From a bacterium (GTDB taxonomy: Bacteria; Myxococcota_A; Bradymonadia; UBA7976; UBA1532), in assembly GCA_030426945.1 (NCBI GenBank), contig JAUHXL010000002.1, forward strand, positions 1 through 52,812: DNA of 52,812 nt, read 5' to 3'. The notes beneath the pieces are model-generated. The model was given only the letters and a program-made list of their open reading frames with translations, ran no database searches and had not been told where the DNA came from. The stretch's first letter is position 1. Each line of letters begins with the position of its first letter. A program made the translations under genes and the position numbers. Below are positions 9,037-35,891 of the stretch, in pieces.

Positions 9037-12000
9037 GCCTGCAGCTGGTCGAAGCGAGCGCCGGCACGGGCAAGACGCACCGCATCGCGCAGGTGTGGCT
9101 GCGGCTGCTGCTGGACGGGCTGCCGGTGGACGCGGTGCTGGTGATGACCTTCTCGCGCGCGGCCACGGCCGAGCTGCGCGGCCGGCTGCGGGCGTACCTG
9201 CTGGCCGCCGTGGCGGCCTTCGACGGCGCCGAGGCGCCCGAGGATCTCACCGCCCTCGTCGCCCAGCGCGCGAAGTCCCGGGCCGCTGATCTCGCCCGCC
9301 TGCGCGAGGTCGCGCGCCGCTTCGACGAGGCCCCGCTGAGCACGCTGCACGGCTTCTGCGCGGACACGCTGCTGCGCTTCGGCCTCGAGGCCGGCGCCGC
9401 GCCCGGCGTCGAGGTGGTCGGCGACGCGACGGCGCTGATCGATCGGCTCGTCGAGGACGCCTGGGTGTCGCACGTCGCCTTCGCCGAGGCGCCCGTGGCC
9501 GGCGACACGACGCTCACCGGCTGGCGCGACCTGGCCCACGCCGCCGTCGCCGCGCCCGACGCGGCGCTGCTGCCCCCGCCGGAGCGCCCGGAGGCCGCCG
9601 CCGCGCACGCGCTGGTCGGGGCGGTGCGGGCGGAGCTCCCCCGCTGCCTCGCGGCCGCGGGCCAGCGCACGCTCGACGGCCTGATCACCACGGTCCGCGA
9701 CGCCCTGCACGATCCCGACGGCGGCCCCGCCCTGCGCGCCGCCTTGCGCGCCCGCTACCGCGCCGTCCTGGTCGACGAGTTCCAGGACACGGATCCGGCG
9801 CAGTGGTCGCTGCTGCAGGCGGCCTTCGGTGACGGCCACCCGCTGGTGCTGGTGGGCGACCCGAAGCAGTCCGTCTACGCCTTCCGGGGCGCCGACCTGC
9901 CGACCTACCTCGCCGCGCGCGCCGCCGCCACGCGCGCCAAGCCGACCACCAGGAACCACCGCACGGACGCCCCGTTGGTCGAGGCCGTCGCCCACCTGTT
10001 CGGGCGGCCCGGCCTGCGGCGGCCCTTCCGCGACGAGGCCATCGCGCCGCCGCCGTCCGAGGCGGCGCACCCGTCGCGGCTCGCGCCGCCGGACGCCGCC
10101 CCGCTGCGCGTCACCTTCGTCCCCCGCGAGGCCGCCGGGGGTCCCCTGCGCGGCGGCCGCATCCCGCGCACGACGGCCCGCGTGCTGGTGCCGCAGGTGG
10201 TCGCGGTGGAGATCGAGCAGACGCTCGCCGCCGGCCTGCGCCGCCACGCCGAGGGCACGACGGTCGCGGTGACGCCGCGCGACGTCGCGGTGCTGGTGCG
10301 CACGCACGCCCAGGCCGCCGCGGCGCAGGCCGCCCTGCGCGCGCGCGGCGTGCCGGCGGTGCTGCGCACACCCGCGTCCGTGCTCGAGCGCCCCGAGGCC
10401 GCCGACCTGACGCGCGTGCTGCACGGCGTCCTCGATCCCAGCAACGCGGGCGCCGTCCGCGCGGCGCTGGCGACCGACCTGCTGGGCGTCGACGCCGCGG
10501 GGCTGGTCGCGTTGGCCGACGACGAGGCCGCGTGGGGCCGCTGGGTGGAGCGCCTGCGCGCGTGGCACGACGCCTGGATGCAGCGCGGCTTCATGGCCAT
10601 GTTCCGCGCGCTGCTGGGCGACGCCGACGTGCCCGCGCGGCTGCTGGCGCGCCCGGACGGCGAGCGCGCGCTGACCGACCTGCTGCACATCGGCGAGCTG
10701 CTGCACGGCGCCGAGCGCCGGCGCCACCTCCGTCCCGCCGGGCTGCTGGCCTGGTTGGCGGCCGGCGGGCCGGACGTCGCGCCCGACGCGCGCCAGCTGC
10801 GCCGGGCCAGCGACGCCGACGCGGTGACCGTCACGACCGTGCACGCCAGCAAGGGCCTGGCGTGGCCGCTGGTGTGGGCGCCCTTCCTGTGGTCGCCCTC
10901 GCCGGTCGGCAAAGAGGCGGTGGTGCGCTTCGCCGACCCCGGCCACGACGGCCGACCGACGCTCGCCATCGGCAGCGCCGCGAAGGCGGCCCGCAGCTTC
11001 GCCGAGCAGGCCGCGCGGGCCGAGGACGTGCGGCTGGCCTACGTCGCGCTCACGCGCGCGCGCCATCGTTGCTGCGTGGTGTGGGGCGCGTTCGAGGGCG
11101 CCGAACACTCGCCGCTCGGCTGGCTGCTGCATCAACGGACCGACGCGCCCGACGCGCGGCTCGAGGCCGAGACCACGCGCTTCTTGCGGCAGGCCGACGA
11201 CGCGACGCTGCTCGGCGAGCTCGAGGCGCTGGGCCACGGCATCGCCGCCGTCGCGCTGCCGCCGTATCCCGGACCGCCCGCGCCGGCCGCCGAGGCGCCA
11301 GCCGAGCCGTTGCGCGCGCGCAGCTTCGACCGGACGCTCGACCTCACCTGGCGGCGCGTCAGCTTCAGCTCGATGACCCGCGGCGCCGCCCACGTCGCCG
11401 TCGTACGCGACCACGACGCGCGCCCGCCCGAGGACGAAGCGACGACGATCGACGACGAGGCCCCGCCCCCGGCGCCGCCCGCCGAGGCCGACCGCGTGCC
11501 CCTGCACGCCGTGCGCGGCGGCGCGCGCTTCGGCACCTGCCTACACCGCATCCTCGAGCTGCACGACTTCACCGCGCCCGACGCGCTGCCGTCCCTGGTG
11601 CACGCGCAGCTTGCCGCGCACGGCCTCGACGCCGAGCACGGCGAGACGCTGACCGCCGCGCTGCAGGCCGCGCTCGACACCCCGCTCACGCCCGACGGCC
11701 CCACGCTGTCGACCGTGCCGCGCAGCCGGCGGCTGGACGAGCTGGACTTCTACCTGCCCCTGCGCGGCGGCTTCGACGCGCCCCCCGGCGCCGCGCTGGA
11801 CCGGCCCGCGCTGGCCGAGGTCTTCCGCCGCCACGGCGAGGCAGAGCTGGCCGATCAGATCCTCGAGCTGCCCTTCGGCGCCGCGCGCGGCTTCCTCACC
11901 GGCAGCATCGACCTCGTCTTCGCGCTCGGCGGCCGCACCTACGTCGTGGACTACAAGTCGAACAACCTGGGCCCGGCCGTCGATGACTACGGCCCGGCCG

Positions 12001-12257
12001 CCGTGGCGGCGGCGATGCGCGATCATCACTACCGCCTGCAGGGGCACCTGTACGCCGTGGCCCTGCACCGCTACCTGCGCTGGCGCGTGCCCGACTATGC
12101 GTACGACACGCACGTCGGCGGGCTGTTCTACCTGTTCCTGCGCGGCATGAGCCCAGCGCACGGCAGCGCGCGCGGGGTGTGGCATCACCGGCCGACGGCG
12201 GCGCTGATCGAGGATCTGGAGGCGACGTTGTGTGGGCTGCCGGGGGCGGCACGATGA
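9033..12257 (+). CDS. recB: exodeoxyribonuclease V beta subunit RecB (SF1 helicase plus PD-(D/E)XK nuclease)
   Basis: GTG 9033 is in frame within ORF 8574..12257. Helicase motifs are VEASAGTGKTHRI (Walker A), LVDEFQDTDPAQW, VGDPKQSVYAFRGAD and TVHASKGLAWPLV. The C-terminal nuclease motif is GSIDLVFALGGRTYVVDYKSN. Confidence 0.9.
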   Translation: MSLQLVEASAGTGKTHRIAQVWLRLLLDGLPVDAVLVMTFSRAATAELRGRLRAYLLAAVAAFDGAEAPEDLTALVAQRAKSRAADLARLREVARRFDEAPLSTLHGFCADTLLRFGLEAGAAPGVEVVGDATALIDRLVEDAWVSHVAFAEAPVAGDTTLTGWRDLAHAAVAAPDAALLPPPERPEAAAAHALVGAVRAELPRCLAAAGQRTLDGLITTVRDALHDPDGGPALRAALRARYRAVLVDEFQDTDPAQWSLLQAAFGDGHPLVLVGDPKQSVYAFRGADLPTYLAARAAATRAKPTTRNHRTDAPLVEAVAHLFGRPGLRRPFRDEAIAPPPSEAAHPSRLAPPDAAPLRVTFVPREAAGGPLRGGRIPRTTARVLVPQVVAVEIEQTLAAGLRRHAEGTTVAVTPRDVAVLVRTHAQAAAAQAALRARGVPAVLRTPASVLERPEAADLTRVLHGVLDPSNAGAVRAALATDLLGVDAAGLVALADDEAAWGRWVERLRAWHDAWMQRGFMAMFRALLGDADVPARLLARPDGERALTDLLHIGELLHGAERRRHLRPAGLLAWLAAGGPDVAPDARQLRRASDADAVTVTTVHASKGLAWPLVWAPFLWSPSPVGKEAVVRFADPGHDGRPTLAIGSAAKAARSFAEQAARAEDVRLAYVALTRARHRCCVVWGAFEGAEHSPLGWLLHQRTDAPDARLEAETTRFLRQADDATLLGELEALGHGIAAVALPPYPGPPAPAAEAPAEPLRARSFDRTLDLTWRRVSFSSMTRGAAHVAVVRDHDARPPEDEATTIDDEAPPPAPPAEADRVPLHAVRGGARFGTCLHRILELHDFTAPDALPSLVHAQLAAHGLDAEHGETLTAALQAALDTPLTPDGPTLSTVPRSRRLDELDFYLPLRGGFDAPPGAALDRPALAEVFRRHGEAELADQILELPFGAARGFLTGSIDLVFALGGRTYVVDYKSNNLGPAVDDYGPAAVAAAMRDHHYRLQGHLYAVALHRYLRWRVPDYAYDTHVGGLFYLFLRGMSPAHGSARGVWHHRPTAALIEDLEATLCGLPGAAR

Positions 12258-15003: not shown

Positions 15004-15900
15004 ATGTCCACGCGCGGCTGGTACGAGCTCTACGTGGTGGACGACGCCCGCCGCGAAGTGTCGCGCGCCATGCAGTGGTACAAATGGGGCGACGCCACGC
15101 CCGAGAACGCGCTGTACGAGCGTGACCTGCTGGCGTCCACGTTCGCCGAGCTGAACAACCGTCCGCCCGTGCATCTGGTCGACGACCTGCTGCGGGACAA
15201 CGTCGGCGAGGCCTTCGCGGTCCTCCCGCCCGCCTTTCCTCTCGGCTGCTATTGCTTCTTCCTGTTGCGCGCCGCCGAAGAGCGGGCGTCCGCGCCCTTC
15301 CGCAGCGCGGACTGGATCCGCCTGCCCAAGGAGCAGCGTCCCGACTATCGGCTCGGCTTCGCCGTTGGCAAAGCCACGGTGCTGCAGGGCTACGAGATTC
15401 CCCGGACCGGCAACGCGACCATCGATGGTGCCCACTTCGCGATCGAAGTCGGCAGGCTGGTGCGCCGCTGGGTCGACCACTCGGCCGACATGACCTTCCT
15501 CCGCTGGCTGCAATACCTCACGCAGGTGACGACCGAGATCGACATGGGCTCCATCGCCGGCGACTTCGAGGCGCCCCGGTTCGACGTCTCGTATCACTAC
15601 AACCTCTTCGTCCGCGTCCCCGCCCTCGACGCCCGAACGCAACACGTCACCGACGTCACCATCGACCTGCGCACCCCAGCCGGCGCCGACCTGCTAGACG
15701 ACATCGACGCCCAGCTCGCCGAGGCCACCCGCGACGACGACCGCGCCTACCTCGAGCGAGAGCGCGCACGCATCACCCGACTCGCCGACGCCGCGCGCCC
15801 CCACCTCACCACCCTCGACGCCCTCCGCGAGACGCACACCCTGGTGCCCAGCCCGTTCTGGGCCAGGCAGATCCCGCGGCTGCAGTACCTGGGGCCATGA
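15004..15900 (+). CDS. hypothetical protein, no domain recognised
   Basis: This 298-aa ORF has an ATG start and non-shadow amino-acid composition (W, Y, F, N and K present). It lies between the toxin-antitoxin pair and a Uma2 gene. Confidence 0.55.
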   Translation: MSTRGWYELYVVDDARREVSRAMQWYKWGDATPENALYERDLLASTFAELNNRPPVHLVDDLLRDNVGEAFAVLPPAFPLGCYCFFLLRAAEERASAPFRSADWIRLPKEQRPDYRLGFAVGKATVLQGYEIPRTGNATIDGAHFAIEVGRLVRRWVDHSADMTFLRWLQYLTQVTTEIDMGSIAGDFEAPRFDVSYHYNLFVRVPALDARTQHVTDVTIDLRTPAGADLLDDIDAQLAEATRDDDRAYLERERARITRLADAARPHLTTLDALRETHTLVPSPFWARQIPRLQYLGP

Positions 15901-15948: not shown

Positions 15949-16698
15949 ATGCCCGACCCGTTCGTTGACGCCGCGCCCGTCGAGGCGCCGCCCTCCGAGG
16001 CCGCCCTGCCCTGCGAAGGCCCCTTCGGCATGGAGCCCAGCCAACATCGCGCCCAACGGGAGCTGCTGATCAGCTCCCTGTCGCTGCACCTCGCGGATCG
16101 CGACGACGTCTTCGTCGGCGGCGCCATGTTCCTGTACTTCAGCGCCCACCAGGTGAAGCGCAACGACCTCCGCGGACCGGATGTCTTCGTCGTCCTGGGC
16201 ACAAACCCCCGCCAGCGTCGATCGTGGGTGATGTGGGACGAGGCGCTGGCGCCACACGTCATCGTCGAGTTGACGTCGCCCGCCACCCGAGACGAGGACC
16301 ACGGGCGCAAGAAGATCCTCTACGCCGACGCGCTGCGCGTGCCCTACTACTTCATCTTCGACCCCGAGTCGGGCCGGCTGGACGGCTTCGATCTGCGGCT
16401 GGCCGCGCCGGAATACGTCGCGCTTCGACCCGACGCCCACGGCCGCCTGCGCTGCGGCTGCCTCGACCTCGACCTCGGCACCTCCGACCTTCCCTACCGC
16501 GGCCAGCCCGGCCCCTGGCTGCGCTGGTTCACGCCCGACGACCGGCTCGTACCGACCCCCGAAGAGGTCGCAGCGCGCGAGGCCGCCCGCGCCGTCGCGG
16601 CCGCCGCCCGCGCCGGGCAGGAAGCCGCGGCCCGCCGCGCCGCCGACGCGCGCGTGGCCGAGCTCGAAGCCCAGCTCCGCGCCCTGCGCGGCGGCTGA
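15949..16698 (+). CDS. Uma2-family (DUF820) PD-(D/E)XK endonuclease with an Ala/Arg-rich coiled C-terminal tail
   Basis: The core pattern DVFVGGAMFLYF...PDVFVV...APHVIVELTSPATRDEDHGRKKILYADALRVPYYFIFDPE fits the Uma2 core (PD..V, E.xS, K, YW/YF.v.dP). Confidence 0.75.
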   Translation: MPDPFVDAAPVEAPPSEAALPCEGPFGMEPSQHRAQRELLISSLSLHLADRDDVFVGGAMFLYFSAHQVKRNDLRGPDVFVVLGTNPRQRRSWVMWDEALAPHVIVELTSPATRDEDHGRKKILYADALRVPYYFIFDPESGRLDGFDLRLAAPEYVALRPDAHGRLRCGCLDLDLGTSDLPYRGQPGPWLRWFTPDDRLVPTPEEVAAREAARAVAAAARAGQEAAARRAADARVAELEAQLRALRGG

Positions 16699-16786
16699 CC
16701 CGAGCGCACGCTCTATCGGCCCACGGGCACGCCGAGTCCACGTCCGCTCGCCGCGCCCCCGGTTCCGCCGCCCATCCCTCCGGCTT

Positions 16787-16827
16787 GGTGCTACCCTGCC
16801 CGCGACGATGACCAGGGCAGGGGCACC
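16787..16827 (+). promoter_or_regulatory. 13-bp interrupted hairpin 9 nt upstream of the FGE-lipoprotein start
   Basis: The structure is GGTGC-TA-CCCTGCCC, a 13-nt loop, then GGGCAGGG-GCACC. I checked the pairing base by base. It lies about 90 nt after the Uma2 stop, so it could be a terminator or a leader structure. Confidence 0.3.
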
Positions 16828-16835
16828 AACCCACC

Positions 16836-18116
16836 GTGCGACGCGTATTGAGCCGACTCATCCTCGCCGTGGCGGCGTCGGGCTGCGCCGTCGACGAGGC
16901 CGACCTGGCCCGCGCCTACGGCGCCGATCCGAGCAGCGCGCCCCACTCCACCCACCCGGACGCGCGCCCCCAACCCAGCCTCGACGGCGGCAGCCCCGGT
17001 ACGCCCGACGGGCCCACGCTGTGGGACGTCGGCACGGGGCGCGACGGGTTCGAGGCCGCCTTCGACGGCCAGGTGCCCACCCGGCCACGCGACGCCTTCG
17101 AGATGACCGACGCCCACGCAGGTCCGCGCGACAGCGCGCCGCCGGCCCCCGTCGATGCCAGCGCTTCCGACCGGGGGCCGTTCACGCCTCCCGCGGACGC
17201 GGCGGCGACGCTCGACGCGATGCCGCGAGACGCCGCGGTGCCCGACGCCTCGCCGGCCCTGGACGACGCGACGCCGCCCGACGCCGGCGCGCCCGACGCT
17301 GGCCCCGTCGTACCGGCGGGCATGGTGCTCATCCGACCGGGGGTCTTCACGATGGGCCTCCAGCTCGACGACGTCGTGCGCGCCGACGTCCAGCCCCGCG
17401 AGGTCACCATCAGCCGGGCCTTCTTCATTGGCCGCACCGAGGTCACGCAGCGGCAGTGGCGCGACCTGATGGGCAACAACCCCTCGTCGTTTGCCGGCTG
17501 CGGGCCCAACTGCCCGGTCGAGCGCATCAACTGGTTCGAGGCAGCGGCCTACTGCAACGCCCTGTCGGCCCGTGACGGGCTGACGGCCTGCTACGAACTG
17601 GACGACTGCAACGGCCGCGTGCCCGGCGGCGACTTCCAGTGCGCAACGGTGGTCTCGCTGTCCGACCGCTGCTCGGGCTACCGCCTGCCGTCGGAGGCCG
17701 AGTGGGAGTACGCCGCGCGCGGCCAAGGAGCCGACGTCACCTATCCCTGGGGCAACGAACCGGCCAACTGCGAGCGGGCGCTCTTCGAGAGCCCCGGCGA
17801 GGGCGGCTATGCCTGCCGCGAAGGCGCGACCACCGACGTCTGCTCTCGATCGCCTGCCGGCGACACGCCCCAGGGCCTGTGCGACATGGCCGGCAGCGTC
17901 TGGGAGTGGGTCGAGGACTACTACGGGCCGTACGCCGAGGCGCCCGTGGACGGCTCACCCCGGACGGTGCCGGGCGCGACGGGTCACCGGATCGACCGCG
18001 GCGGCGGGCTTGGCAACCGTTCACGCGGTCTGGCCTGTGCCAACCGCAACGCCGGTTCGGCGACGATACGCGACGCCAGCCTCGGCTTCCGCGTGGCGCG
18101 CACCGTCGACCCATGA
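16836..18116 (+). CDS. lipoprotein with a C-terminal FGE-sulfatase-fold (SUMF1-like) domain
   Basis: GTG start gives MRRVLSRLILAVAASGC (lipobox), followed by a Pro/Asp/Ala-rich linker. FGE-sulfatase motifs follow: GMVLIRPGVFTMG, EVTQRQW, PVERINWFEAAAYCNALS, YRLPSEAEWEYAARG, GSVWEWVEDYYGPY and LGFRVART. Confidence 0.85.
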   Translation: MRRVLSRLILAVAASGCAVDEADLARAYGADPSSAPHSTHPDARPQPSLDGGSPGTPDGPTLWDVGTGRDGFEAAFDGQVPTRPRDAFEMTDAHAGPRDSAPPAPVDASASDRGPFTPPADAAATLDAMPRDAAVPDASPALDDATPPDAGAPDAGPVVPAGMVLIRPGVFTMGLQLDDVVRADVQPREVTISRAFFIGRTEVTQRQWRDLMGNNPSSFAGCGPNCPVERINWFEAAAYCNALSARDGLTACYELDDCNGRVPGGDFQCATVVSLSDRCSGYRLPSEAEWEYAARGQGADVTYPWGNEPANCERALFESPGEGGYACREGATTDVCSRSPAGDTPQGLCDMAGSVWEWVEDYYGPYAEAPVDGSPRTVPGATGHRIDRGGGLGNRSRGLACANRNAGSATIRDASLGFRVARTVDP

Positions 18117-19903
18117 GCCGACCGCCAACCACCCAGCTTCAGTGGATCCTCGGTGCGCTCCTCGCCGCCCTCGCCACCGGCCCCCTCGTGGCCACCGCGG
18201 CCGAGCCCACCGTCCTCCCGCGCCTCGAGCCCCCACGAACCGCGTCGACCGCCCCGCAGGACGCCGCCGTCGTCATCGGCATCGAGGACTACGTCTACCT
18301 GCCCAACGTCCCCTTCGCCCGCGCCGACGCCGAGGCCTTCCACCGCTTCCTCACCGACACCGTCGGCGTACCCCCCGAGCGGATCAAGAACCTCGCCGTG
18401 CAGCCGGCGACGCGCACCACCATGCTCAACGCCGTCCGCGGCGCCGCCCAGCGCGTGGGCCCCAACGGCACCCTGTGGATCTACTTCGTCGGCCACGGCG
18501 CCCCGGTGGTCGACGCGTCCGGCGATGCCGTCCCCTACCTGATCGGCCACGCCGCCACCAGCGACGCGCTGCAAGAGGCCTCGATCAGCCAGGCCGAGCT
18601 GCTCCAGGCCGCCCGCCCCGGCGAGTCGGCGCGGGGCACGGTCGTCCTGATCGACGCATGCTTCAGCGGCCTCTCGCGCCAGGGCACCCAGCTGACCACC
18701 GACCGCTTCGGCGGCGCCGTCACCCTGGGCGCCGCGCCGCGCACCGTGGTCTGGACCGCCGCGCAGGCCAACCAGAGCGCGGGCGTCTTCGCCGAGACGG
18801 GCCACGGACTCTTCACCTACTTCGCCGTCGGCGCGCTGATGGGCTGGGCGGCGGACGAAGCCGGTCAGGTCACCGTCGAAGGCGCCCAGCGCTACGTCGA
18901 GCGCGCGATGAAGGTGGCCGAAGGCGTGCGCTCCCGCCCCCAGGAGCCCCACTTCGGCACCCCGCCCGACACGGCCCAATGGCTGCTGGCCACGGTCGAC
19001 CCGAAGGCGGCCAAGCCCGACCTGCGCGCCCTCAACCGCCTGTCCACCAGCCTGCGCCTGGGCCTCGAGGCGCCCCCCGAGGTGAAGCCCGTCGAGCCCT
19101 TCGTCCCGATCCGCGTGGGCTACCAGGCTCAGGATCCCGCCGCCCTCCGGCTGCTCGAGACCGCGATCCGCGCCGATCGCGACGCGGGCGTCCCACCCGA
19201 GCAGAAGATCGGCGCCTGGCGCGCGGTCGCCGACCACCCGCGCACCAGCGCCGAGCATCGTCTGCAAGCGGACGGGCGCGCCGCCCGTTGGCGAGCCTTC
19301 ATCGAGGCCGAGCGAGCCCGCGACGAACAGATTCGCCAGATTCGCGCCCGCTACACCACCGACCGCGCGCACCTGACCCAGCTGCTCGCGCTGGGTGACG
19401 ATGTCGCCCCGGCCGAACAGAAGCGGTTGTGGCGCGAAGAGTTCGCGCGCGTCTGGACGCCCTGGCGCGAGCTGGTCGGCGACGATCCGCTGCTCGACTC
19501 CAGCCGCGCCCTGTCCAGCCTGGCCGCCACGCTCGCGGCCGGCACGGGCGTCCTGCTCTACGACGGCGAGGCGTCGCGAACGGGCGCGATGCTCGAGGTG
19601 CTCGGCGGCTATCGGTGGGGCGGCTGGTCGCTGCAGGCCGGGCCCGTGATCGGCGTCGAGCCGCCGCACCCGGTCATCGTCCGCGGCGTGGCCACCGGCC
19701 GATCCGGCTGGCTGGTCGGGCGCCTCGGCGTCCAGTCGATGGTCCACCCCGAGCAGACCGTCGGCGCCGTCGGCGGCGCCGGCGTGTTCGTGCCGATCAC
19801 CTCGACGCTGGCCGCCGTGCTCCTGGCCGAGTTGACCTGGTGGCCCCGCAGCAGCGCCGTCCTGCCCTTCGAGGGGCGCCTGGGCCTCGCCTACGGTTGG
19901 TGA
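18113..19903 (+). CDS. exported caspase-fold (peptidase C14) protein with a helical middle region and a hydrophobic/aromatic C-terminal domain ending YGW
   Basis: ATG 18113 overlaps the upstream stop (ATGA) and is in frame in ORF 17639..19903. There is a signal-like ILGALLAALATGPLVATAA. The caspase core is AAVVIGIEDYVYLPNVPFARADAEAF...GTLWIYFVGHGAP...VVLIDACFSG, with the His-Gly and Cys dyad present. Confidence 0.8.
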   Translation: MSRPPTTQLQWILGALLAALATGPLVATAAEPTVLPRLEPPRTASTAPQDAAVVIGIEDYVYLPNVPFARADAEAFHRFLTDTVGVPPERIKNLAVQPATRTTMLNAVRGAAQRVGPNGTLWIYFVGHGAPVVDASGDAVPYLIGHAATSDALQEASISQAELLQAARPGESARGTVVLIDACFSGLSRQGTQLTTDRFGGAVTLGAAPRTVVWTAAQANQSAGVFAETGHGLFTYFAVGALMGWAADEAGQVTVEGAQRYVERAMKVAEGVRSRPQEPHFGTPPDTAQWLLATVDPKAAKPDLRALNRLSTSLRLGLEAPPEVKPVEPFVPIRVGYQAQDPAALRLLETAIRADRDAGVPPEQKIGAWRAVADHPRTSAEHRLQADGRAARWRAFIEAERARDEQIRQIRARYTTDRAHLTQLLALGDDVAPAEQKRLWREEFARVWTPWRELVGDDPLLDSSRALSSLAATLAAGTGVLLYDGEASRTGAMLEVLGGYRWGGWSLQAGPVIGVEPPHPVIVRGVATGRSGWLVGRLGVQSMVHPEQTVGAVGGAGVFVPITSTLAAVLLAELTWWPRSSAVLPFEGRLGLAYGW

Positions 19904-19976
19904 GGCCGCCCGACGCTGGCGCACCGCCCTGCGAGGCGCTAGTCTTCGGCCACTCGAACGGGCCGTACTTGGGTTC

Positions 19977-21242
19977 ATGTCACGCTGGCCGCTCACCGCT
20001 GTCGCGGCGCTGCTCATCGCCACCCTTGCATCGCCCGCCGCCGCAGAGCCGCAGCCGGCCGCGACGTGCGCGTACACCCTGCCCAAGGGCGGCCAGCGTT
20101 GGCGCGTCGAGCGCGCCTGGGCCACCGGCCGCGACGAGGCCGACGCCCGGCAGAACGCGCGCGACAAGGCCCGCCAGCAGCTCGACCGCGACCTGCGCGG
20201 CGTCTACCCCGACGCCGACCGCGCCGCCATCGTGGGCAGCCTGCGCTACGTCGGCGCCGCCTACGACCCGACCACCCGCACGGCCTGCGTCACCGCGCTG
20301 GTCGAGAAGCCCGACCTGCCCGCGGCCGCCAAGGCGCCCTACGAGACCCTCCAGGCCGAGCTCGCCCGCCTGATCGACGCCCTGCCCCGCGTGACGCGCG
20401 CGCGCCGCCTGCGCCTGTTGCCGCCCCAGTGGAGCACCGGCCTCGGCGCCGGCGAGCTGGGCGAGCGCCTGCGCGTCCAGATCGAGGGCGCCCTGGGCGC
20501 CGCCGAGCGCGGCTACACCCTCGACCCGCGCGCCAAGCACACGCTGGGCTTCAACCTCGCGCCGTCGGGCACCGGCTGCGCCGTCACGCCCTACGTCCGC
20601 GACGCGCGCGGCCGCCGCAAGCCTCTGCCCGGCCTGACCGTGCCGCCCCAGGCCCTCGGCCTGCGCACCTGCGCCTCGGCCGCCCCCAGCGCCGCGCTCG
20701 GCGATCCCACGCTGGGCCTCGTCGACGGCGAGCGCGCCGGCGCCGACGGCCTGCGCGTGCAGCTCTGGACCTCGGCGGGCGATCGCCCGCTCTGCGGCGG
20801 CGAGCCCTACGACGTCTTCCTGCGCACCAACCGCCCCGCCCGCGTCCGCATCTACGCCGTCGCCAGCGACGGCCGCGTCGCGATGGGCTGGCCCGAGCAA
20901 GCCGTCGACGGCGAGCACCGGGTCACGCCCCCCGGCGCCAGCGTCCACCTGGGCCCCGACCTGGGCTACCGCCTGGTCGCCGTCGCGGTCCCCAAGGGCC
21001 TCGGCTTCGGCGACTTCCGCCCAGCCACCCCGGCCGACGCCCGCGACGGCTGCATGGGCCGGAAGGGCCTTCGCGCCGCCGACTTCCCCTCGGGAGCGGC
21101 CCTCGCCGCGCTGCCACAGACGGTCCGGTCGCCGGATGCGGCAAGCTGCCGCCCCGACACTGATGCCCGCGCGGTGCACGAGCGCTTGCTGGCCTTCTAC
21201 GATGCTCTGCCCACCTGTCGAACAGATGGAGGTCGGTGGTGA
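19977..21242 (+). CDS. secreted protein with a DUF4384-like C-terminal region
   Basis: The signal peptide is MSRWPLTAVAALLIATLASPAAAEP. The segment LRVQLWTSAGDRPLCGGEPYDVFLRTNRPARVRIYAVASDGRVAMGWP...GYRLVAVAVP matches my memory of the DUF4384 pattern and needs HMM confirmation. It is homologous by eye to 24634..25935(-). Confidence 0.55.
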   Translation: MSRWPLTAVAALLIATLASPAAAEPQPAATCAYTLPKGGQRWRVERAWATGRDEADARQNARDKARQQLDRDLRGVYPDADRAAIVGSLRYVGAAYDPTTRTACVTALVEKPDLPAAAKAPYETLQAELARLIDALPRVTRARRLRLLPPQWSTGLGAGELGERLRVQIEGALGAAERGYTLDPRAKHTLGFNLAPSGTGCAVTPYVRDARGRRKPLPGLTVPPQALGLRTCASAAPSAALGDPTLGLVDGERAGADGLRVQLWTSAGDRPLCGGEPYDVFLRTNRPARVRIYAVASDGRVAMGWPEQAVDGEHRVTPPGASVHLGPDLGYRLVAVAVPKGLGFGDFRPATPADARDGCMGRKGLRAADFPSGAALAALPQTVRSPDAASCRPDTDARAVHERLLAFYDALPTCRTDGGRW

Positions 21243-23278
21243 GACGACGCCCCGACGTGTTCTCCGCGCTCGCTCTGCTGGCTGCCATCTGGCCACTGTC
21301 CGCGCACGCTGAGCGCGCCGTTCTGCCGCCGCTCGACCCCCCGAAGACTGGCGCCGTTGCCCCTCATGACGCGGCTGTCGTGATCGGTATCGAGGACTAC
21401 GCCTACCTGCCCGACGTGCCCTTTGCTCAACGAGATGGCCGACTGGTCCACCGCTTCCTGACCGACACGGTCGGCGTGCCGGTCGAGCGCATCAGCAATC
21501 TGTTCGTTCGCCCCGCGACACGGGCCGCCATTCTGAAGGCCGTCCGCGAACGGTCGGCCGAGGTCGGTCCAGATGGCACGCTCTGGATCTACTTCTCGGG
21601 CCACGGTCTGCCCTGGAGTGATGGCGACACGACCGAAGCGCTGCTGGTCGGTCAGTCGGCCACCCAGGGCACGTTGCGTGACGACTCCGTATCCAAGGCC
21701 GAGCTGCTGAAGGCCGCCCAGGTCCCTGAGGGTAGTCGCGGCGTCGTCGTCTTGCTCGACGCCTGCTTCAGCGGCAAGGACCGCGCCGGCGCCAGCCTGT
21801 CCGGTGCCCGCTTCGGCGGCGCGGTGACCCTCGGCGTCACACCGAACACCGTTGTATGGACCGCCGCCCAGGGAAACCAGATCGCCGGCACGCTGCCCGA
21901 GGTGCAGCACGGCATTTTCACCTACTTCGCGGTTGGCGCGCTGTCGGGCTGGGCCCGCGAGACGGGCGGGTCCGGTGTTGTGCGGGTGGCCGACGCCCAG
22001 CGGTACGTGGACCGAGCGATGCGGGTCGCCGAGGCAGTCCGTGGCCAGCCCCAGCAACCGCACCTGGCCGCGCCCACGCCGACTCTCCAGTGGCGCCTGA
22101 CAGAACGGGCGGGTGATCCGCCGCGCCCCGATCTCGACGCCTATGGCCGAGGAGGCCGCACGTTCGTCGCAGTCGTGCCCGTCCCCCGTGTGGCCCCGGT
22201 CAAGCCGTTCAGCCTGCCGCCTGGTGGTTTCCGAGACGTCGATGTGCAGGCGCTGACCACGCTGCAAGAGGCCGTGCGAACCGAGCGAAGCGACAGCGCG
22301 ACGCCTGCCGAGCGCGCGAGCGCCTGGGACGCTGTCGCCCGCCACCAGGGGACCAGCGCGGCGCACCGACGCCAGGCCGAAGAACGCGCTCAGGCCTGGC
22401 GGGCCTTCGTCGCCGCCGAGCGCGCGCGCGCCCAACAGGAAGCCGAGGTCCGCGTTCGCTTCGCGGCCGACCGGGACAAGCTGAGGCACCTGCTCGCACT
22501 CGACGACGAGGTCGTGTCGGCTTCGATGAAGCAGCGCTGGCGCCAGGAATTCGTGACAGTGTGGACACCCTGGCGCCAAGTCGTGGGCGACGATCCCCTT
22601 TTCGTGGAGATCCCCGCTACGGCCCGCGAAGCATCAGGGCTGAGGGCGACCGACGCCTCCGCCCAGCAGGATACCCTCGAGCGCGACGAGGTGACCGACG
22701 TGCCCTCGACGGTCGAACAGCAGTCCGACGTCTCAGACTTCGAGGCGCAGAAGCACTGGCTCCAGCTGAGCGCTGCCGGCTACATCGGAGCGGTCGACCT
22801 CGGCCAGATCGATAACGGTGTCTTCACCTTCGACGGCACCCAACTCGAGCCACTGAACGCCATGGGCTTCGCGGTCAACGCAGCTTTCAGCGCGCGTTGG
22901 TTGCAGGCCGGCGTCGGCCTCCGCTTCGCAGCCGCCCGCCTGACCGACGCACAACTCGCGGGTTTCGAATCGATCTCGATCTACTCCACGACGCCCTACG
23001 CCTTCTTCGGACCTCAGTTCACCTGGGCCGAGTCCATCGCGCTCCGTCAGGCAACCGTGTTCGTGCAGGGTATGGTGGGGTCGGAGTTCCTTCAGGTGGC
23101 CGGTGACAGTTCCAACGACGGTGAGGACATCGATGTCTCTGCCGAAGCCCTCATGTGGGGCGGAACGGCGGGCTTTCGATATCACATCTCGCCAGCGTGG
23201 GGCATCTTCGCGGCGTACCGTTTCGAGCAGTCCGATCTCGCACAAACACACGGTGCAGCTGCAGGCTTGGTCTTCTAA
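21236..23278 (+). CDS. exported caspase-fold protein with the same helical middle region and a C-terminal putative outer-membrane beta-barrel domain
   Basis: GTG 21236 overlaps the upstream stop at 21240-21242. The signal peptide is FSALALLAAIWPLSAHA. The caspase core is AAVVIGIEDYAYLPDVPF...GTLWIYFSGHGLP...VVLLDACFSG. The last ~175 aa show an alternating hydrophobic pattern and end in AAGLVF, with a terminal Phe. Confidence 0.8.
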   Translation: MVRRRPDVFSALALLAAIWPLSAHAERAVLPPLDPPKTGAVAPHDAAVVIGIEDYAYLPDVPFAQRDGRLVHRFLTDTVGVPVERISNLFVRPATRAAILKAVRERSAEVGPDGTLWIYFSGHGLPWSDGDTTEALLVGQSATQGTLRDDSVSKAELLKAAQVPEGSRGVVVLLDACFSGKDRAGASLSGARFGGAVTLGVTPNTVVWTAAQGNQIAGTLPEVQHGIFTYFAVGALSGWARETGGSGVVRVADAQRYVDRAMRVAEAVRGQPQQPHLAAPTPTLQWRLTERAGDPPRPDLDAYGRGGRTFVAVVPVPRVAPVKPFSLPPGGFRDVDVQALTTLQEAVRTERSDSATPAERASAWDAVARHQGTSAAHRRQAEERAQAWRAFVAAERARAQQEAEVRVRFAADRDKLRHLLALDDEVVSASMKQRWRQEFVTVWTPWRQVVGDDPLFVEIPATAREASGLRATDASAQQDTLERDEVTDVPSTVEQQSDVSDFEAQKHWLQLSAAGYIGAVDLGQIDNGVFTFDGTQLEPLNAMGFAVNAAFSARWLQAGVGLRFAAARLTDAQLAGFESISIYSTTPYAFFGPQFTWAESIALRQATVFVQGMVGSEFLQVAGDSSNDGEDIDVSAEALMWGGTAGFRYHISPAWGIFAAYRFEQSDLAQTHGAAAGLVF

Positions 23279-23762: not shown

Positions 23763-24572
23763 TCACGGGGGCGTTCGGGCCACGCGGAAACCCAGGAATG
23801 CGCCGCGGAAGTCGGCCGAATTCCTGTTGCGGTCCGCCGCGCGCAAACTCTCGTCTGTGAAGAACCAGCTGCCGCCCCGAAACACCCGATACTCGGCGGA
23901 CTCGGTGCGCGCACTGCCGTCACTGGGCGCCTCCCCATACGGACCATGCCAGTCCGCGACCCATTCCCACACGTTTCCCGCCATGTCGCAGAGCCCATGC
24001 ACCGTGTTTCCGGCGGACCTCGAACACGCCCGCGCCGTGGACTCGGTTCCACAGCCCAGCCCGCCATCGTTCATCACAGCGCGACTGCAGTCCGCCTGCT
24101 CGTCGCCCCACGGGTACTCCCTTGCCTTACCACCGGACCGTGCCGCGTACTCCCATTCGGCCTCGCTCGGCAGCCGACCGCCCACCCAAGCAGCGAACGC
24201 CGACGCCTGTCCCCAGTCCACACAGTTGATGGGATGCTCGTCCCTGCCCGACTTGTTCCAGTTGCAGTACGTGCCAGTGGCTGGCACGGTGCAAGCTGCG
24301 GCTTCAACGCACGCCCGATACTGTACCACCGTCACTTCCGTCTTCGACAAGGCGAATGCAGGCACAGTCACGTTTCGAACCGGCAACTCGTCCGAGTCTC
24401 CCTTTGCGGACCCCATAGAGAACGAACCGCCCTCCAGCACGACCCACTCGACCCGGGCCTCGCCGCGCAGCAGCGGCCCCGAGCCCTCGTACACGCCCTC
24501 CAACTCGTTCGCGCACCCCGCCCCCAGCAGCAGAAGCCAGCCGAGCAGCCCCCACCCCAAGGCTCGACCCAT
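23763..24572 (-). CDS. lipoprotein consisting essentially of one FGE-sulfatase-fold domain
   Basis: ATG 24572 in ORF 23763..24659(-) gives MGRALGWGLLGWLLLLGAGC (lipobox). Motifs are GGSFSMGS, SKTEVTVVQYRAC, HPINCVDW, GRLPSEAEWEYAARSGG, GNVWEWVADWHGPYGEAP and LGFRVART. Confidence 0.85.
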   Translation of the reverse strand: MGRALGWGLLGWLLLLGAGCANELEGVYEGSGPLLRGEARVEWVVLEGGSFSMGSAKGDSDELPVRNVTVPAFALSKTEVTVVQYRACVEAAACTVPATGTYCNWNKSGRDEHPINCVDWGQASAFAAWVGGRLPSEAEWEYAARSGGKAREYPWGDEQADCSRAVMNDGGLGCGTESTARACSRSAGNTVHGLCDMAGNVWEWVADWHGPYGEAPSDGSARTESAEYRVFRGGSWFFTDESLRAADRNRNSADFRGAFLGFRVARTPP

Positions 24573-24633: not shown

Positions 24634-25935
24634 CTACTCACACCCCACCACCCCCGCAATCATCCCCCCCACCTGCGCCCGACTCAACGCCCGCCCCGGC
24701 GCGCACGGCGGGCCGTCGTGCACGACGAACGCGCTCGTGCCCACCTGCGCGCCGGCGGGCCACTCGCCGCGGTCCAGGCGCGCGCGCTGGGTGGCGGACA
24801 GGCGGCACTGCCCCTTCGGCAGGCCGGCCAGCCAGCCGGCGGGCTTGCCGCGAGGGACGAAGACGGCGACCAAGCTCTCGGGCTCGCCGCCCGGCGGGGG
24901 CGCGATGTCCAGCGCAGGCGACGACAGATCCTGCGGACCGTAAGCCGTCTGCGGCGGCAAGGTCAGCGCGTGGTCGGCGAAGCGATCAAAGACGTACAGG
25001 GTGCCGGCGCCGGGCGCGCTGACCTTCAGCGTCGTGCGGTCGCCGTTGCACAGGCGGCCGTGGGGACCGGGGGCCAGCCGCATCGACAGCGCGCCGGCGG
25101 CCACGGTGGGCGCCGCGTGCTCGGAGGGGGCGGCGTCCTCGGGGATCAGCAGCGCGGGCGCCCACCGGGTCGAGCCCGCGCGGGTGGGGCGGGCCGAGTA
25201 CTGCACGTCGACCACCGGGCTGTTGTTCTCGCGCCGGTTCACGTAGGTGCCCTCGATCACCCACTCGACCCCGCTCGGCTTGTCCTCGCCCGGCTTCAAC
25301 GGCACGACCTCGGCGCCGGCGCGGCTGAGCGCGGCGGCGATCAGCTGGGCCAGCCAGACGCCGCGCTCGGCGCCTTGCAGGTGGCCGCGGCGCACGGCGC
25401 CGACGGCGACCCGGTGAGGCTTTCGGGGGGACGGCTTGCCGGCCGGCAGCAGGTCGCGGGCGCGTTCGTCGAGCTGCGCCGCCAGCCCCTCGGTGCTGGC
25501 CTTGGTGCGCCGCCAGCGGTCGAGCGCGGCCTCGCTGAGCACGACCTGCGCGCACACCTGGTCGCCGCCTTGGGCCACGGCGTTGGGGTACAGGCTGACG
25601 TTGGCCTCCAGCGCCGCGCAGCTTCGGGCGCCGTCGCACAGCGGGCCCAGCAGCTTGGCGCGGGCGGCGCGCTCGACGGCCGTCGCGGCGTCGGCGCCCC
25701 GGGGCAGCGTCGCGACGGCGCTCTTCCACGGCCCCCCGCAGGGCAGCGGGGCGCGCTCCGGGCACACCCAGGGCTTCGGGTTCGCGCAATCCTCCGCCGC
25801 GGCGGGCCACGGACCCAACACCGCAGCGCACGCCACGACGAGCGCGGGCCAACGGCCGCTCACCGCCCGGCGTCCACCGCCCGCGCGGCGTGCTCCAGCG
25901 TGTCGGTGGCCCAACGCGGCCGCGCCGCCCCTCAC
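24634..25935 (-). CDS. secreted protein with a DUF4384-like C-terminal region (paralog of 19977..21242)
   Basis: GTG 25935 overlaps the stop of the upstream lipoprotein gene (GTGA). An alternative GTG at 25863 would give MSGRWPALVVACAAVLGPWPAAA. The C-terminal segment LKVSAPGAGTLYVFDRFADHAL...ESLVAVFVP is DUF4384-like. Confidence 0.55.
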   Translation of the reverse strand: MRGGAAALGHRHAGARRAGGGRRAVSGRWPALVVACAAVLGPWPAAAEDCANPKPWVCPERAPLPCGGPWKSAVATLPRGADAATAVERAARAKLLGPLCDGARSCAALEANVSLYPNAVAQGGDQVCAQVVLSEAALDRWRRTKASTEGLAAQLDERARDLLPAGKPSPRKPHRVAVGAVRRGHLQGAERGVWLAQLIAAALSRAGAEVVPLKPGEDKPSGVEWVIEGTYVNRRENNSPVVDVQYSARPTRAGSTRWAPALLIPEDAAPSEHAAPTVAAGALSMRLAPGPHGRLCNGDRTTLKVSAPGAGTLYVFDRFADHALTLPPQTAYGPQDLSSPALDIAPPPGGEPESLVAVFVPRGKPAGWLAGLPKGQCRLSATQRARLDRGEWPAGAQVGTSAFVVHDGPPCAPGRALSRAQVGGMIAGVVGCE

Positions 25936-27026
25936 CGCGTGGCGTCCGCCGCCGCGCGCGCGGCCTGCTCGAGCGTGTCAGTGGCGATGAAGGCCAGCAC
26001 CTTGGCCTTGTACTGCCAGCCATCGGGGCCCTGCGTGCTCTCGACCTTCCAGTCCTCGTCCTTGACGAAGCGCGCCACGCCCTGCGAGGCCCGCTGCAGC
26101 GTGCTCTTCTCGTCCAACCTCGCCGTCAGCGCGGCCAGATCGCCGGCCAGCGTCTCGTTGCGGCTGGCCGACTGCTGGATGGCCTCGCCCAGATAGCGGA
26201 TGACCTGCCGCCGCGCCTCGAGCAGCGCCAGGTCGCGCGCCAGGCGCTCGCTGGTGACCCACTCCGACACGCCGACGAAGTACTGGCCGTGCCCCACCTT
26301 GGGCACCTTGCCGCTGGCCCAGTCCGCGGCCGCCGCGCCGGGATTGCGCTCGATACCCCCACCCCCAGGGCTCAGCTTGAACGCGAAGAACACCGGCTGC
26401 TTGAACTCCACCGCCTGCCGCCACGCCAGCCCGTCGCGGTACTCCACCCCGGCCATCTCGGCGGCCTTCAGATCGGCCTCCGTGGCCCGCATGTCGGCGT
26501 AGTACAGCTTGCCCGTGCCCCCGAGGAACTCGCCGACGATGCGCCCGCTGCAGTTGCCGTCGGCCTGCCGGCAGCAGGCGTCGTAGCCCGCGGGATCGGC
26601 GAGATCGGCGATCCACTTGTCGGTCAGCGTGTATTGCACGCGCACCACGCGGCCGTTCTGGTGCGAGATGCCCGCCTTGATGGGCACGTCCTCGGCCGGC
26701 AGGCTCATGCCGGCCGACGCCGCCTCGCTGGCGCGGAAGTACTCGTCGTAGGTGACCCCGCCGCCCTTCACCTTGCGCACCGTGAAGAACTGGCTGCACG
26801 CCGTGCGCTGCGCGTTGGCGTCGTCGATGTCGCCGTCGGCCACGGCGTCGGGCACGAAGCGCCCCAGGTACACCGATGGATCCGTGTCGAAGCCCGTACG
26901 CAGGAAGAAGTTGGCCTTGGGCCGCACCATGGTCGGCTGCAGCGTCGGCCCCGAGGGCCCGCCACCGCAGGCGAGCATCGGCAAGGTCAGCGCGGCCAGC
27001 GCCAGCGCGCGGAGAGTCAGCGACAT
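25932..27026 (-). CDS. hypothetical lipoprotein (N-terminal ~200 aa unassigned; C-terminal helical region)
   Basis: ATG 27026 is preceded by GGGAGGAA and gives MSLTLRALALAALTLPMLAC (lipobox). I can name no family with confidence. The first gene of the three-gene minus-strand unit lipoprotein -> DUF4384-like -> FGE-fold. Confidence 0.65.
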   Translation of the reverse strand: MSLTLRALALAALTLPMLACGGGPSGPTLQPTMVRPKANFFLRTGFDTDPSVYLGRFVPDAVADGDIDDANAQRTACSQFFTVRKVKGGGVTYDEYFRASEAASAGMSLPAEDVPIKAGISHQNGRVVRVQYTLTDKWIADLADPAGYDACCRQADGNCSGRIVGEFLGGTGKLYYADMRATEADLKAAEMAGVEYRDGLAWRQAVEFKQPVFFAFKLSPGGGGIERNPGAAAADWASGKVPKVGHGQYFVGVSEWVTSERLARDLALLEARRQVIRYLGEAIQQSASRNETLAGDLAALTARLDEKSTLQRASQGVARFVKDEDWKVESTQGPDGWQYKAKVLAFIATDTLEQAARAAADATR

Positions 27027-27145: not shown

Positions 27146-27988
27146 CTATCCGAACAGCCCGCCGACCTCGGTGCAGGTGGCGGCGCGGCGCAGCCAGCTC
27201 GTCAGCGCGGACGGGTCAAGCGTGGCTCGGATGCGCGCGGCGACATCGCCGGGGACGGGGAGGCCGCGGGCCTCCAGCACGGCGAGGATCGACTCCGCCA
27301 ACGCCTTGGCTTCGCCCTCGGCCATGCCCTCGGCTCGGCCCTCGGCCCTACCCTCGGCGGCGCCGGCGTCGTGGCTGTTGCGAAGCGCGCCGACGAGCAC
27401 CGGGTTGCGCTTGGCCAGCAGTGCTTGCGCCACCGCGTCGTCGGCCTTGGCGGCGTCGACCAAGGCGGCGACCGGCAGCGGGGCCGCCAAGGCGCTGTCC
27501 ACGATCCGCTCGTCGGGCCCGAGGATCCGCCAGCCGTCGGTGGCGGTCGACCACTCGAGGGCCCGGCGGCGCTCGACGTCGATGGCGAAGACGCGGCGCA
27601 CGCCGCGCCCCACCAGCTTCGCGGCCTTGACGCCCGCGTCGGCGAGGCGCTCGGTGCTGCAGATCTCGAAGGCGAGCTGCTCGAGCTGGCGGCGGCCGGT
27701 CTCGGCGTCGCGCGCACGGGGGAAGACGCTGACGTCGGGCGCCATGTCGTCGAGGACGGAGGTGCGGGTCAGCATGTCGACGGCGACGTCGAAGTCGTCG
27801 TGGGCGTGGGCCTCGACGAGGGCGGCGACCTTCGAGTGCCGCGTCCCGTGGGGCTCGTCGGCGGGCGCCACGTACACCACCGTCCCGTCGAGGATTTCGA
27901 AGCGCGTCTCCGGTGCGACCAGGCGCTCGTCGACCCCGAGCGGGTCGCGGGGCTGGGGGGATGAGCCGTCGGTGCCGGAGGTCGCCAT
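27146..27988 (-). CDS. Uma2-like PD-(D/E)XK endonuclease with a helical C-terminal tail
   Basis: The core pattern is RFEILDGTVVYVAPADEPHGTRHSKV...APDVSVF...LAFEICSTERLADAGVKAAKLVGRGVRRVFAIDVE (Uma2 core). The tail EGRAEGMAEGEAKALAESILAVLEARGLPVPGDVAARIRA resembles the C-terminal tails of Rpn/PD-(D/E)XK transposase-like proteins. Confidence 0.65.
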   Translation of the reverse strand: MATSGTDGSSPQPRDPLGVDERLVAPETRFEILDGTVVYVAPADEPHGTRHSKVAALVEAHAHDDFDVAVDMLTRTSVLDDMAPDVSVFPRARDAETGRRQLEQLAFEICSTERLADAGVKAAKLVGRGVRRVFAIDVERRRALEWSTATDGWRILGPDERIVDSALAAPLPVAALVDAAKADDAVAQALLAKRNPVLVGALRNSHDAGAAEGRAEGRAEGMAEGEAKALAESILAVLEARGLPVPGDVAARIRATLDPSALTSWLRRAATCTEVGGLFG

Positions 27989-30458: not shown

Positions 30459-30667
30459 CCCTTGTTCCCTTGCGCCCTTGACCCTTCGCCTCGAAGAACG
30501 AGCAGTGCCGAGCGCAGACGACCGAGGAGAGCGCCGCCCAGCGACGGGGGGCCCGGAAGGGCGCCCGACTCAGCGGCAGCCGAGGGCGCCCGGGAGGGCA
30601 CCCCGCCGCAGGGCGGTGAGCGAGCGAAGCGAGCGACGTTTGTCCTTTCCGCGACGCCCTTCGCGCC
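30459..30667 (+). repeat. copy A of a ~205-nt conserved non-coding element directly after a caspase-FGE stop codon
   Basis: It shares ordered blocks with the reverse complement of 39926-40128: CCCTTGACCCTTCGC, TGCCGAGCG, GGCCCGGAAGGGCGCCCGAC, CAGCG.CAGCC.AGGGCGCCCG.GAGGGCACCCC, GAGCG.AGCGAGC and CCCTTCG. It contains two GGGCGCCC palindromes. Confidence 0.6.
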
Positions 30668-35834: not shown

Positions 35835-35891
35835 GCCACCCGAGCGCCCAACCGCCCGACCGAGCACTTGGCCAGGAGTCGAAACCACAAC

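Follow-up and report, generated by a model that had tools for sequence, protein, structure and literature searches.

What links a caspase-fold protease to the lipoprotein encoded directly upstream of it, when the same two protein folds are fused into single polypeptides elsewhere on the same stretch of DNA? This question is raised by a 52,812-nucleotide (nt) stretch of contig JAUHXL010000002.1 (assembly GCA_030426945.1, positions 1 to 52,812), which comes from a bacterium of the class Bradymonadia in the Myxococcota and is called the window below. Four plus-strand genes lie close together there. Gene A (16836-18116) encodes a lipoprotein of 426 amino acids (aa) with the fold of the formylglycine-generating enzyme (FGE; PF03781), gene B (18113-19903) an exported caspase-fold protease of 596 aa, gene C (19977-21242) an exported 421-aa protein of an unannotated family, and gene D (21236-23278) a second exported caspase-fold protease of 680 aa, a paralog of B. 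A preliminary description had taken all four as one module, the split form of the fused genes. Our answer, held with moderate confidence, is that they make up two neighboring units, A+B and C+D, on the border of a strain-specific island of exported caspases and recurrent partners, and that they belong to an envelope protease system with an FGE-fold recognition part and a role in conflict or social behavior.

Open reading frames (ORFs) were filtered by third-position G+C content (GC3) in this window of ~74% G+C, and the calls and frames of A to D are consistent with the GC3 frame bias, confirming four real and tightly packed genes. The stop codon of A overlaps the ATG of B in a shared ATGA (18113-18116), and the stop codon of C overlaps the GTG start of D in GTGGTGA (21236-21242), with a GGAGG Shine-Dalgarno motif at 21226-21230; both junctions stand as first described. 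The heptamer of the second is kept in a close relative, locus L001, whose gene call begins at the second GTG; depending on which GTG is the start, the overlap measures 7 or 4 nt. B and C are separated by 73 nt on the same strand. Four-base stop/start overlaps are frequent in operons of G+C-rich bacteria, and the A/B and C/D overlaps thus argue for cotranscription, not for physical contact. A promoter and terminator scan, uninformative in such G+C-rich DNA, returned no promoter and one terminator, on the minus strand, and a search of Rfam gave no matches. Our own domain hidden Markov models (HMMs) find the caspase domain six times in the window (in B, D, G, H, I, and K) and the FGE domain five times (in A, E, G, I, and K), the numbers given before. 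By pattern inspection of the sequences, every component of the module has a signal peptide or a lipobox, and the lipoproteins (A, E, and a further protein, U2) were called in the same way from the signal peptide and lipobox Cys.

Do the four genes form one module? The comparison with L001 indicates that they do not. L001 encodes RecBCD, PhD/PIN, the protein U1, and Uma2, followed directly by C and D, with exactly A and B missing, in a background of 97.6% protein identity for RecD and 92.6% for C. The A+B cassette is therefore a 3.2-kb indel (16694-19909, plus strand), bounded by the Uma2 stop and the B stop. Since A+B is absent from L001 as one piece, the two genes are gained or lost together, and since L001 keeps C-D and their overlap without A-B, C+D is a unit separate from A+B. 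L001 has the same spacer upstream of C, implying that C+D could be expressed without A+B. The single four-gene module thus gives way to two separable units.

Could A simply have landed beside B? FGE lipoproteins are abundant in Myxococcota, and adjacency without functional coupling would reduce the ATGA overlap to compact packing; four-base overlaps are common, the nearest homologs of A stand in arrays of FGE genes without caspases, and most unfused caspases of this family have no FGE neighbor. We regard this explanation as unlikely, because it leaves four observations aside. A and B come and go as one cassette whose two ends are the Uma2 stop and the B stop. An independent overlapping pair occurs in an unrelated Myxococcota metagenome-assembled genome (MAG; locus L053), in which a caspase stop overlaps the ATG of an FGE lipoprotein of the A subtype by 7 nt (ATGgTGA), in the reverse gene order to that of the window; the caspase of this pair has a hydrophobic tail ending in Trp. 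Locus L086 has an FGE gene, a U2 gene, a C-family gene, and a caspase gene in one codirectional row. Finally, seven of eight stand-alone FGE genes have a caspase domain within 2.5 kb, counted in caspase-anchored loci with flanks of 10 kb and small in number. L053 (4316-8003, 9989-12432) even carries both forms, a C-family gene followed by a caspase-FGE fusion and, on the other strand, the split overlapping pair. Neighborhoods in all these loci were scored by HMM matches on stop-to-stop ORFs, since the GC3-based gene caller was unreliable on some of them. Together with fusions in at least 18 of ~80 related loci, the A+B indel and the L053 pair extend the genomic link between caspase and FGE folds beyond the window, and a functional link of A with B is supported by this comparison of sequences.

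B consists of a signal peptide, a caspase domain (residues ~40-310), a helical domain (~340-475), and a hydrophobic tail (479-596). Its fold was missed by sequence searches of Pfam and PDB. D exceeds the PF00656 threshold (36.2 versus 21.4 bits), and B, G, H, I, and K have no match to this Pfam model even at an E value of 10; a PDB profile search with the caspase family alignment returned FGE structures only. The caspase fold was therefore assigned by structure prediction and Foldseek. The AlphaFold model of B has a predicted local distance difference test (pLDDT) score of >90 over residues 40 to 475, with the caspase fold at 40 to 310, and matches MALT1, GSU0716 of Geobacter, metacaspases, and caspase-8 with a probability of 1.0 and E values down to 7e-9. 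The catalytic dyad His128/Cys183 (B numbering), with the His in a GHG and the Cys in a DACFSG motif, is invariant in 43 homologs, and G127-H128-G129, D181, and C183 are invariant in both the 13- and the 43-sequence alignments, which include all six window paralogs. The NCBIfam model NF047832 (caspase, EACC1-associated type) matches all six domains with E values of 1e-12 to 2e-25 (2e-25 for B), at 47 to 89 bits, all under its 140-bit cutoff. A preference for Arg or Lys at P1 is our presumption, drawn solely from the Asp of the D-x-C motif by analogy with metacaspases.

B and D are 51% identical over 488 aa and have the helical domain in common, and B is 35% identical over 459 residues (E = 2e-35) to the fused protein K, helical region included, so the proposed homology of this middle region to that of a fused caspase holds. 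Judged by their sequences, B and D are not fusions minus an FGE domain; each appears to have its own C-terminal module in place of it. The tail of B comprises 118 residues ending in AYGW that AlphaFold could not model, with one hydrophobic 19-residue window (mean Kyte-Doolittle hydropathy, 1.9) and no match to PF13505. The C-terminal ~170 aa of D give a weak match to this beta-barrel family (19.6 bits against a cutoff of 28.7) and end in GLVF, with a terminal Phe, and by these features look like an outer membrane beta-barrel. Among relatives, the slot after the caspase (or caspase-helical) core is filled by an FGE fold, by Sel1 repeats, or by several other domains recognized by eye only, suggesting that the C terminus is a swappable module of which FGE is the commonest filler. 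In the caspases of three loci (L009, L010, and L015) of the Myxococcales MAG YF1.bin66, the protein ends in a domain of ~130 residues with the motif GGWRLPS..EL....FW.SS...VRCVR, which by eye resembles the DUF1566/Lcl type and is a possible further lectin-like fold in the variable slot.

The same two folds are fused in one polypeptide at three places in the window, as had been noted. G (28173-30458, plus strand; 761 aa) and I (33657-35834, plus strand; 725 aa) are exported caspase-linker-FGE fusions, G with a repeat-containing linker that differs from the helical domain of B and D. K (40129-42216, minus strand) is an exported fusion of caspase, helical, and FGE domains, the helical one being homologous to its counterpart in B and D, and it is this K architecture that recurs in the at least 18 loci mentioned above, from Elusimicrobia and Myxococcota MAGs. 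H (30907-32502, plus strand) is an exported caspase with a linker of the G/I type, without an FGE domain, and with a Cys-containing C terminus. The linkers of G and I, and part of that of H, contain a Glu/Arg/Ala-rich, coiled-coil-like repeat along with two copies of a motif of ~45 residues (KGVRAVEAF..YA.HPLGNP) (29224-29400 and 29350-29650; 34705-35040). These linkers replace the helical domain of B, D, and K. Directly past the stop codons of G (30459-30640) and K (39950-40128, minus strand) lies a sequence of ~170 nt with 73 to 83% identity between copies; it is also found after the FGE-ending gene of L001 (14300-14471) and was not found after I or after E, the second stand-alone FGE gene of the window. 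It contains a long G+C-rich hairpin (minimum free energy of -92 kcal/mol, z = -2.0) and may be a terminator or an element of the repetitive extragenic palindromic type.

Are A and B, then, the two halves of such a fusion? The preliminary description had made a Rosetta-stone argument of fusion in one place and fission in another. B and D indeed match the caspase and helical parts of K, and A and E match the FGE part. Orthology to the fused domains holds for E and fails for A. E (23763-24572, minus strand) is a stand-alone FGE-fold lipoprotein convergent with D, its lipobox (LLLLGAGC) noncanonical at position -3 by pattern inspection. Its identity to the fused FGE domains is 58 to 69%, within a range of 58 to 72% for all pairs among E, G, I, and K. 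In A, a lipobox (ASGC within VAASGC, residues 14-17) is followed by a long Pro/Asp/Ala-rich linker and an FGE domain at residues 162 to 422, and identity to the local fused domains is only 38 to 42%. The tree of FGE domains, built by neighbor joining and without bootstrap support, has two subclades, E nesting among the fused domains and A grouping with stand-alone proteins. The best candidate for a detached FGE domain is, from these alignments, E.

Simple gene fission, with A and B as halves of a former fusion like G, I, and K held together by translational coupling, is for these reasons quite unlikely. It has in its favor that fused and unfused forms share caspase and helical domains, that the ATGA overlap is real, and that FGE domains of the A subclade are fused to the same caspase family in other organisms (P0007, P0011, and L053). 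Yet A is far from the local fused domains and stands upstream, not downstream, of its caspase; its 120 best database matches are all stand-alone FGE proteins; and B ends in a 118-residue tail of its own, not in a truncation. The fission reading keeps E as its best candidate, A being no detached half of the local fusions.

What do the FGE domains do? All five are strong PF03781 matches (A, 143; E, 190; G, 189; I, 168; and K, 202 bits; cutoff, 23.3). However, all of them lack both catalytic copper-binding cysteines (LCHDSYC in Streptomyces coelicolor FGE): three residues are deleted where the first Cys would be, and the second is replaced by T, A, P, A, or S. They are therefore not formylglycine-generating enzymes. 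No sulfatase gene was found among the 30 window proteins scanned with Pfam. The same scan found no DinB-like iron-binding domain of the EgtB type, and only the FGE part of EgtB aligns; models of EgtB, OvoA, and SenA score 48 to 103 bits on the FGE domains, against cutoffs of 360 to 420. A 25-residue segment between RGG and LGFRVAR in E, G, I, and K has 3 of 25 positions invariant, compared to 112 of 192 elsewhere (Fisher P = 9e-6), and a mean pairwise identity of 33% versus 71% elsewhere. It coincides with the position of the FGE active-site loop, which we take to be also the variable region of FGE-type lectin folds targeted by diversity-generating retroelements (DGRs). With the catalytic cysteines lost and variation confined mainly to one segment, these domains look like binding modules. 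DGR diversification itself was considered and rejected: no reverse transcriptase domain was found in the scanned genes, there is no template repeat, and no near-identical noncoding repeat of the variable segment exists, all repeats being paralogous coding DNA of 60 to 86% identity.

A catalytic role was raised earlier for FGE-fold partners of caspases, in which one substrate would be first modified by the FGE part and next cleaved by the caspase, or handled in the opposite order (as speculated by Asplund-Samuelsson et al. 2012, PMC3501461). The high PF03781 scores fit this proposal, and other chemistries are known for this fold from PvdO, EgtB, and related enzymes. For the five window domains, we consider it very unlikely, given the missing cysteines and the 3-residue deletion common to all, the lack of an EgtB-type DinB-like domain, and a loop that is the most variable part of the paralogs precisely where an active site should be conserved.

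Besides proteases and FGE proteins, the neighborhood contains two further families. The label DUF4384-like had been attached to C, and a marginal resemblance exists; PF14326 (DUF4384) scores 15.8 bits on C (E = 0.015), below its 27-bit cutoff, and is matched by only 1 of 36 C-family members (at 7e-4) and not by F, a distant relative of C. The C family, which is unannotated and made up of exported proteins of ~400 residues with six invariant cysteine or glycine positions, comprises 123 representatives at 50% identity in an exhaustive HMMER search; a word-indexed search with C found its ortholog only. The model of C (pLDDT, 87.6) combines alpha/beta domains with a beta-sandwich, fitting DUF4384 loosely at most. 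Foldseek gave no whole-chain match to it and nothing at an E value of 1e-3 or below, and at the level of single domains it resembles the C-terminal alpha/beta domain of LpoB, the N-terminal one of TolB, and beta-sandwiches.

The module is not confined to A to D, as first assumed, but continues on the other strand as E, F, and U2. F (24634-25935, minus strand) is a distant C-family member (hhalign probability of 97.6%, E = 4e-12, 332 aligned columns) that profile comparison alone links to C, BLASTP between the two not being significant. Upstream of F, U2 (25932-27026, minus strand) encodes a lipoprotein (LPMLAC) of another unannotated family, for which nothing was found in PDB or PADLOC, and its stop codon overlaps the first possible start codon of F in the sequence GTGA. 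This minus-strand row of U2, F, and E converges on the plus-strand row of A, B, C, and D, the two rows jointly holding two FGE, two C-family, two caspase, and one U2 gene. The arrangement recurs: U2 genes lie directly upstream of C-family genes in other genomes, and L086 has the order FGE lipoprotein, U2, C, and caspase-FGE in one direction, with stop/start overlaps at U2/C and C/caspase and a gap of 57 nt between FGE and U2. A search with the U2 alignment retrieved five metagenomic loci. A C-family gene is present in all five, immediately downstream in four and ~3 kb off, beyond a caspase-FGE gene, in L090; four also have a caspase, the contig of the fifth stopping short of where one might be encoded. 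Further combinations of U2, C-family, and caspase neighbors occur in L003, L012, L016, L017, L053, L054, L057, and L081.

All the caspase, FGE, C-family, and U2 genes of the window fall within a 25.5-kb accessory island (16699-42197) that also contains a second Uma2 gene, a HEPN-like gene, and McrBC, and A to D are its left edge. The island is absent from the sister MAG GCA_020633465.1 (L094), where Uma2 lies ~110 bp from the AI-2E transporter flank and the flanking DNA is 80 to 94% identical to that of the window. Three near-identical genomes thus have none of the island, a part of it (C and D together with a transposase and the end of an FGE gene), or all of it. Proteins that share 90% or more identity with those of the window are annotated as from "Myxococcales bacterium." The version in L001 is shorter and different, with a DDE transposase. 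Divergence between the window and L001 is uneven: RecB, RecD, PIN, and C are 93 to 98% identical, with synonymous divergence (dS) of 0.11 to 0.23; U1 and Uma2 are intermediate (dS of ~0.45); and D is 67% identical to its counterpart (10001-12040), with a dS of 0.82 and a ratio of nonsynonymous to synonymous divergence (dN/dS) of 0.29. This pattern looks like mosaic recombination, and the high dS of D relative to RecB, RecD, PIN, and C indicates allele replacement by recombination. Positive selection on D was rejected, with dN/dS at 0.29 and dS four times that of flanking genes. The GC3 of D (0.80) is below that of neighboring genes.

The presence and absence of the island, the number of paralogs, and the neighbors (toxin-antitoxin, Uma2, HEPN-like, and McrBC genes) favor a role in conflict or social behavior over housekeeping. 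A housekeeping envelope machine, with FGE lipoproteins as a ring or scaffold like PorK/GldK and a caspase that processes exported proteins, is highly improbable in a region missing from so close a sister genome and marked by six paralogs, mosaic divergence, a transposase in L001, and GldK/GldJ model scores far below their cutoffs, despite the NCBIfam and PDB matches to PorK/GldK and GldJ, the predicted export of all components, and the likeness of C domains to LpoB and the TolB N-terminal domain.

How might an envelope protease with an exchangeable recognition part work? The protease would act in the cell envelope, held at a membrane by its own C-terminal tail (B and D) or through a partner. 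The FGE domain, a C-type-lectin fold, would be the part that recognizes a ligand or target, either within the same polypeptide in cis (G, I, and K) or as a separate lipoprotein in trans (A partnering B, and perhaps E). In many genomes, genes for a C-family protein and a U2-like lipoprotein come directly before such caspase genes, and their products could be regulators or substrates of the protease. Ligand binding might then, on the model of cytoplasmic protease-effector modules, release the protease to cut a partner or target, the cut probably falling after Arg or Lys.

Several observations weigh against this reading. In other genomes, no FGE gene lies within 10 kb of about eight unfused caspase-helical genes, indicating that an FGE partner in trans is not obligatory. 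The two closest matches of A with retrievable context are members of the caspase-free FGE arrays. The tail of B could not be modeled and the barrel match of D is below threshold, so that localization is only inferred. PvdO is an enzyme of the FGE fold without the cysteines, and the fold is hence compatible with catalysis. Lastly, the sole PADLOC match is to a generic "caspase" model.

How much of this is already known? A caspase p20-like domain followed by an FGE-sulfatase domain was reported in 33 of 671 prokaryotic metacaspases, and frequent N-terminal hydrophobic segments, possibly signal peptides, were noted in the same survey (Asplund-Samuelsson et al. 2012, PMC3501461); reviews cover prokaryotic caspase homologs with an FGE domain (PMC5756287, PMC7475262). 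G, I, and K have the same domain order and are members of that architecture class of orthocaspases, or metacaspase-like proteins. With the caspase-FGE fusion published since 2012 (PMC3501461), the Rosetta-stone link is not new in itself. The surveys, however, describe architectures only, and the caspase domains of the window are divergent, D alone reaching the Pfam threshold. In the searchable literature, surveys included, we found no account of a split, exported form whose FGE partner is a lipoprotein, of the conserved helical linker, of the variants with membrane tails (B and D), of the U2/C-family/caspase neighborhood, or of the strain-specific island, and these appear new beyond the known fusion.

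Four known systems offer further comparisons. FGE/FGS domains are regarded as lectin-fold sensors (Kaur et al. 2020, 2021: PMC7159879, PMC8195603; STAND sensors, PMC13581612). In those systems, as in the window, a noncatalytic fold lies C-terminal to an effector such as a caspase and variation is concentrated in the C-terminal segment of the fold, and TvpA (PDB 2y3c), a DGR variable protein, is detected by sequence from the window FGE domains. Those systems are cytoplasmic, built on NTPases (STAND, MoxR-vWA), and often diversified by reverse transcriptase, whereas the window module has no NTPase, retroelement, or template repeat, and every protein is predicted to be exported. Caspase-like proteases of defense modules activate adjacent effectors (PMC12642450). 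Such modules, with EACC1 or gasdermin, likewise combine a protease gene with closely linked small partner genes in variable islands, and NF047832 is the best-scoring curated model for all six window domains. With scores of 47 to 89 bits, these caspases nevertheless fall outside the NF047832 subfamily, and the window has no EACC1, gasdermin, MBL, or alpha/beta-hydrolase effector, its partners C and U2 being exported and unannotated. PorK/GldK and GldJ of type IX secretion and gliding are FGE-fold outer membrane lipoproteins without FGE chemistry that serve structural or binding functions in the periplasm; they are detected by sequence from the window domains, but at 90 bits against an equivalog cutoff of 350, and the window has no other type IX secretion genes and behaves as accessory DNA. 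True FGE (SUMF1; S. coelicolor FGE, PDB 2q17 and 6muj) shares the fold and much core sequence (E = 1e-29), differing in the cysteines, which all five window domains lack; as noted, the window proteins scanned with Pfam include no sulfatase.

We further propose, as a possibility that is rather doubtful at present, that U2-like lipoprotein, C-family protein, and exported caspase make up an undescribed conflict system resident in the envelope of Myxococcota and some other phyla. The caspase would carry an exchangeable recognition domain, lectin-fold or other, in cis or in trans. On sensing a surface molecule that is foreign or non-kin, a lectin-like sensor in the periplasm would allow the protease to cut a latent lipoprotein or a periplasmic effector. 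If true, such a system would be the extracytoplasmic equivalent of immune modules of the cytoplasmic caspase/STAND/gasdermin type. More generally, if the module is an envelope system of recognition and proteolysis, bacterial caspase immunity or social conflict would extend from the cytoplasm to the periplasm. The locus gives several handles on the caspase-FGE architecture, cataloged since 2012 with no functional one: a fold that is not the FGE enzyme and is variable at its presumed binding surface, a lipoprotein in the same mobile cassette that would supply this fold in trans, and proteases that are predicted to be exported. Two conserved, unannotated partner families (C and U2) are candidate substrates or regulators, and with three near-identical genomes that have the island in full, in part, or not at all, natural knockout comparisons are possible.

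Some other genes of the region deserve mention. Genes for an McrB-like AAA_5 GTPase, McrC, and a weakly matching HEPN (RiboL-PSP) protein lie among the caspase-FGE paralogs (35868-39256 and 32676-33275). Of the two genes of the Uma2 family of putative restriction endonucleases, one is at the left border of the island (15949-16698) and the other inside it, next to U2 (27146-27988, minus strand); the Uma2 of L001 matched the border copy only (BLASTP). U1 (15004-15900), a protein of 298 aa with no family match, is encoded between the PIN toxin and Uma2; it is kept in L001 at 74% and reduced in L094 to a 57-aa remnant by deletion of 15334-15706. Far upstream, at 434-2701 on the minus strand, a 755-aa protein has thrombospondin type 3 repeats that correspond to tandem repeats of 69 nt in the DNA (seven copies, 1554-2198).

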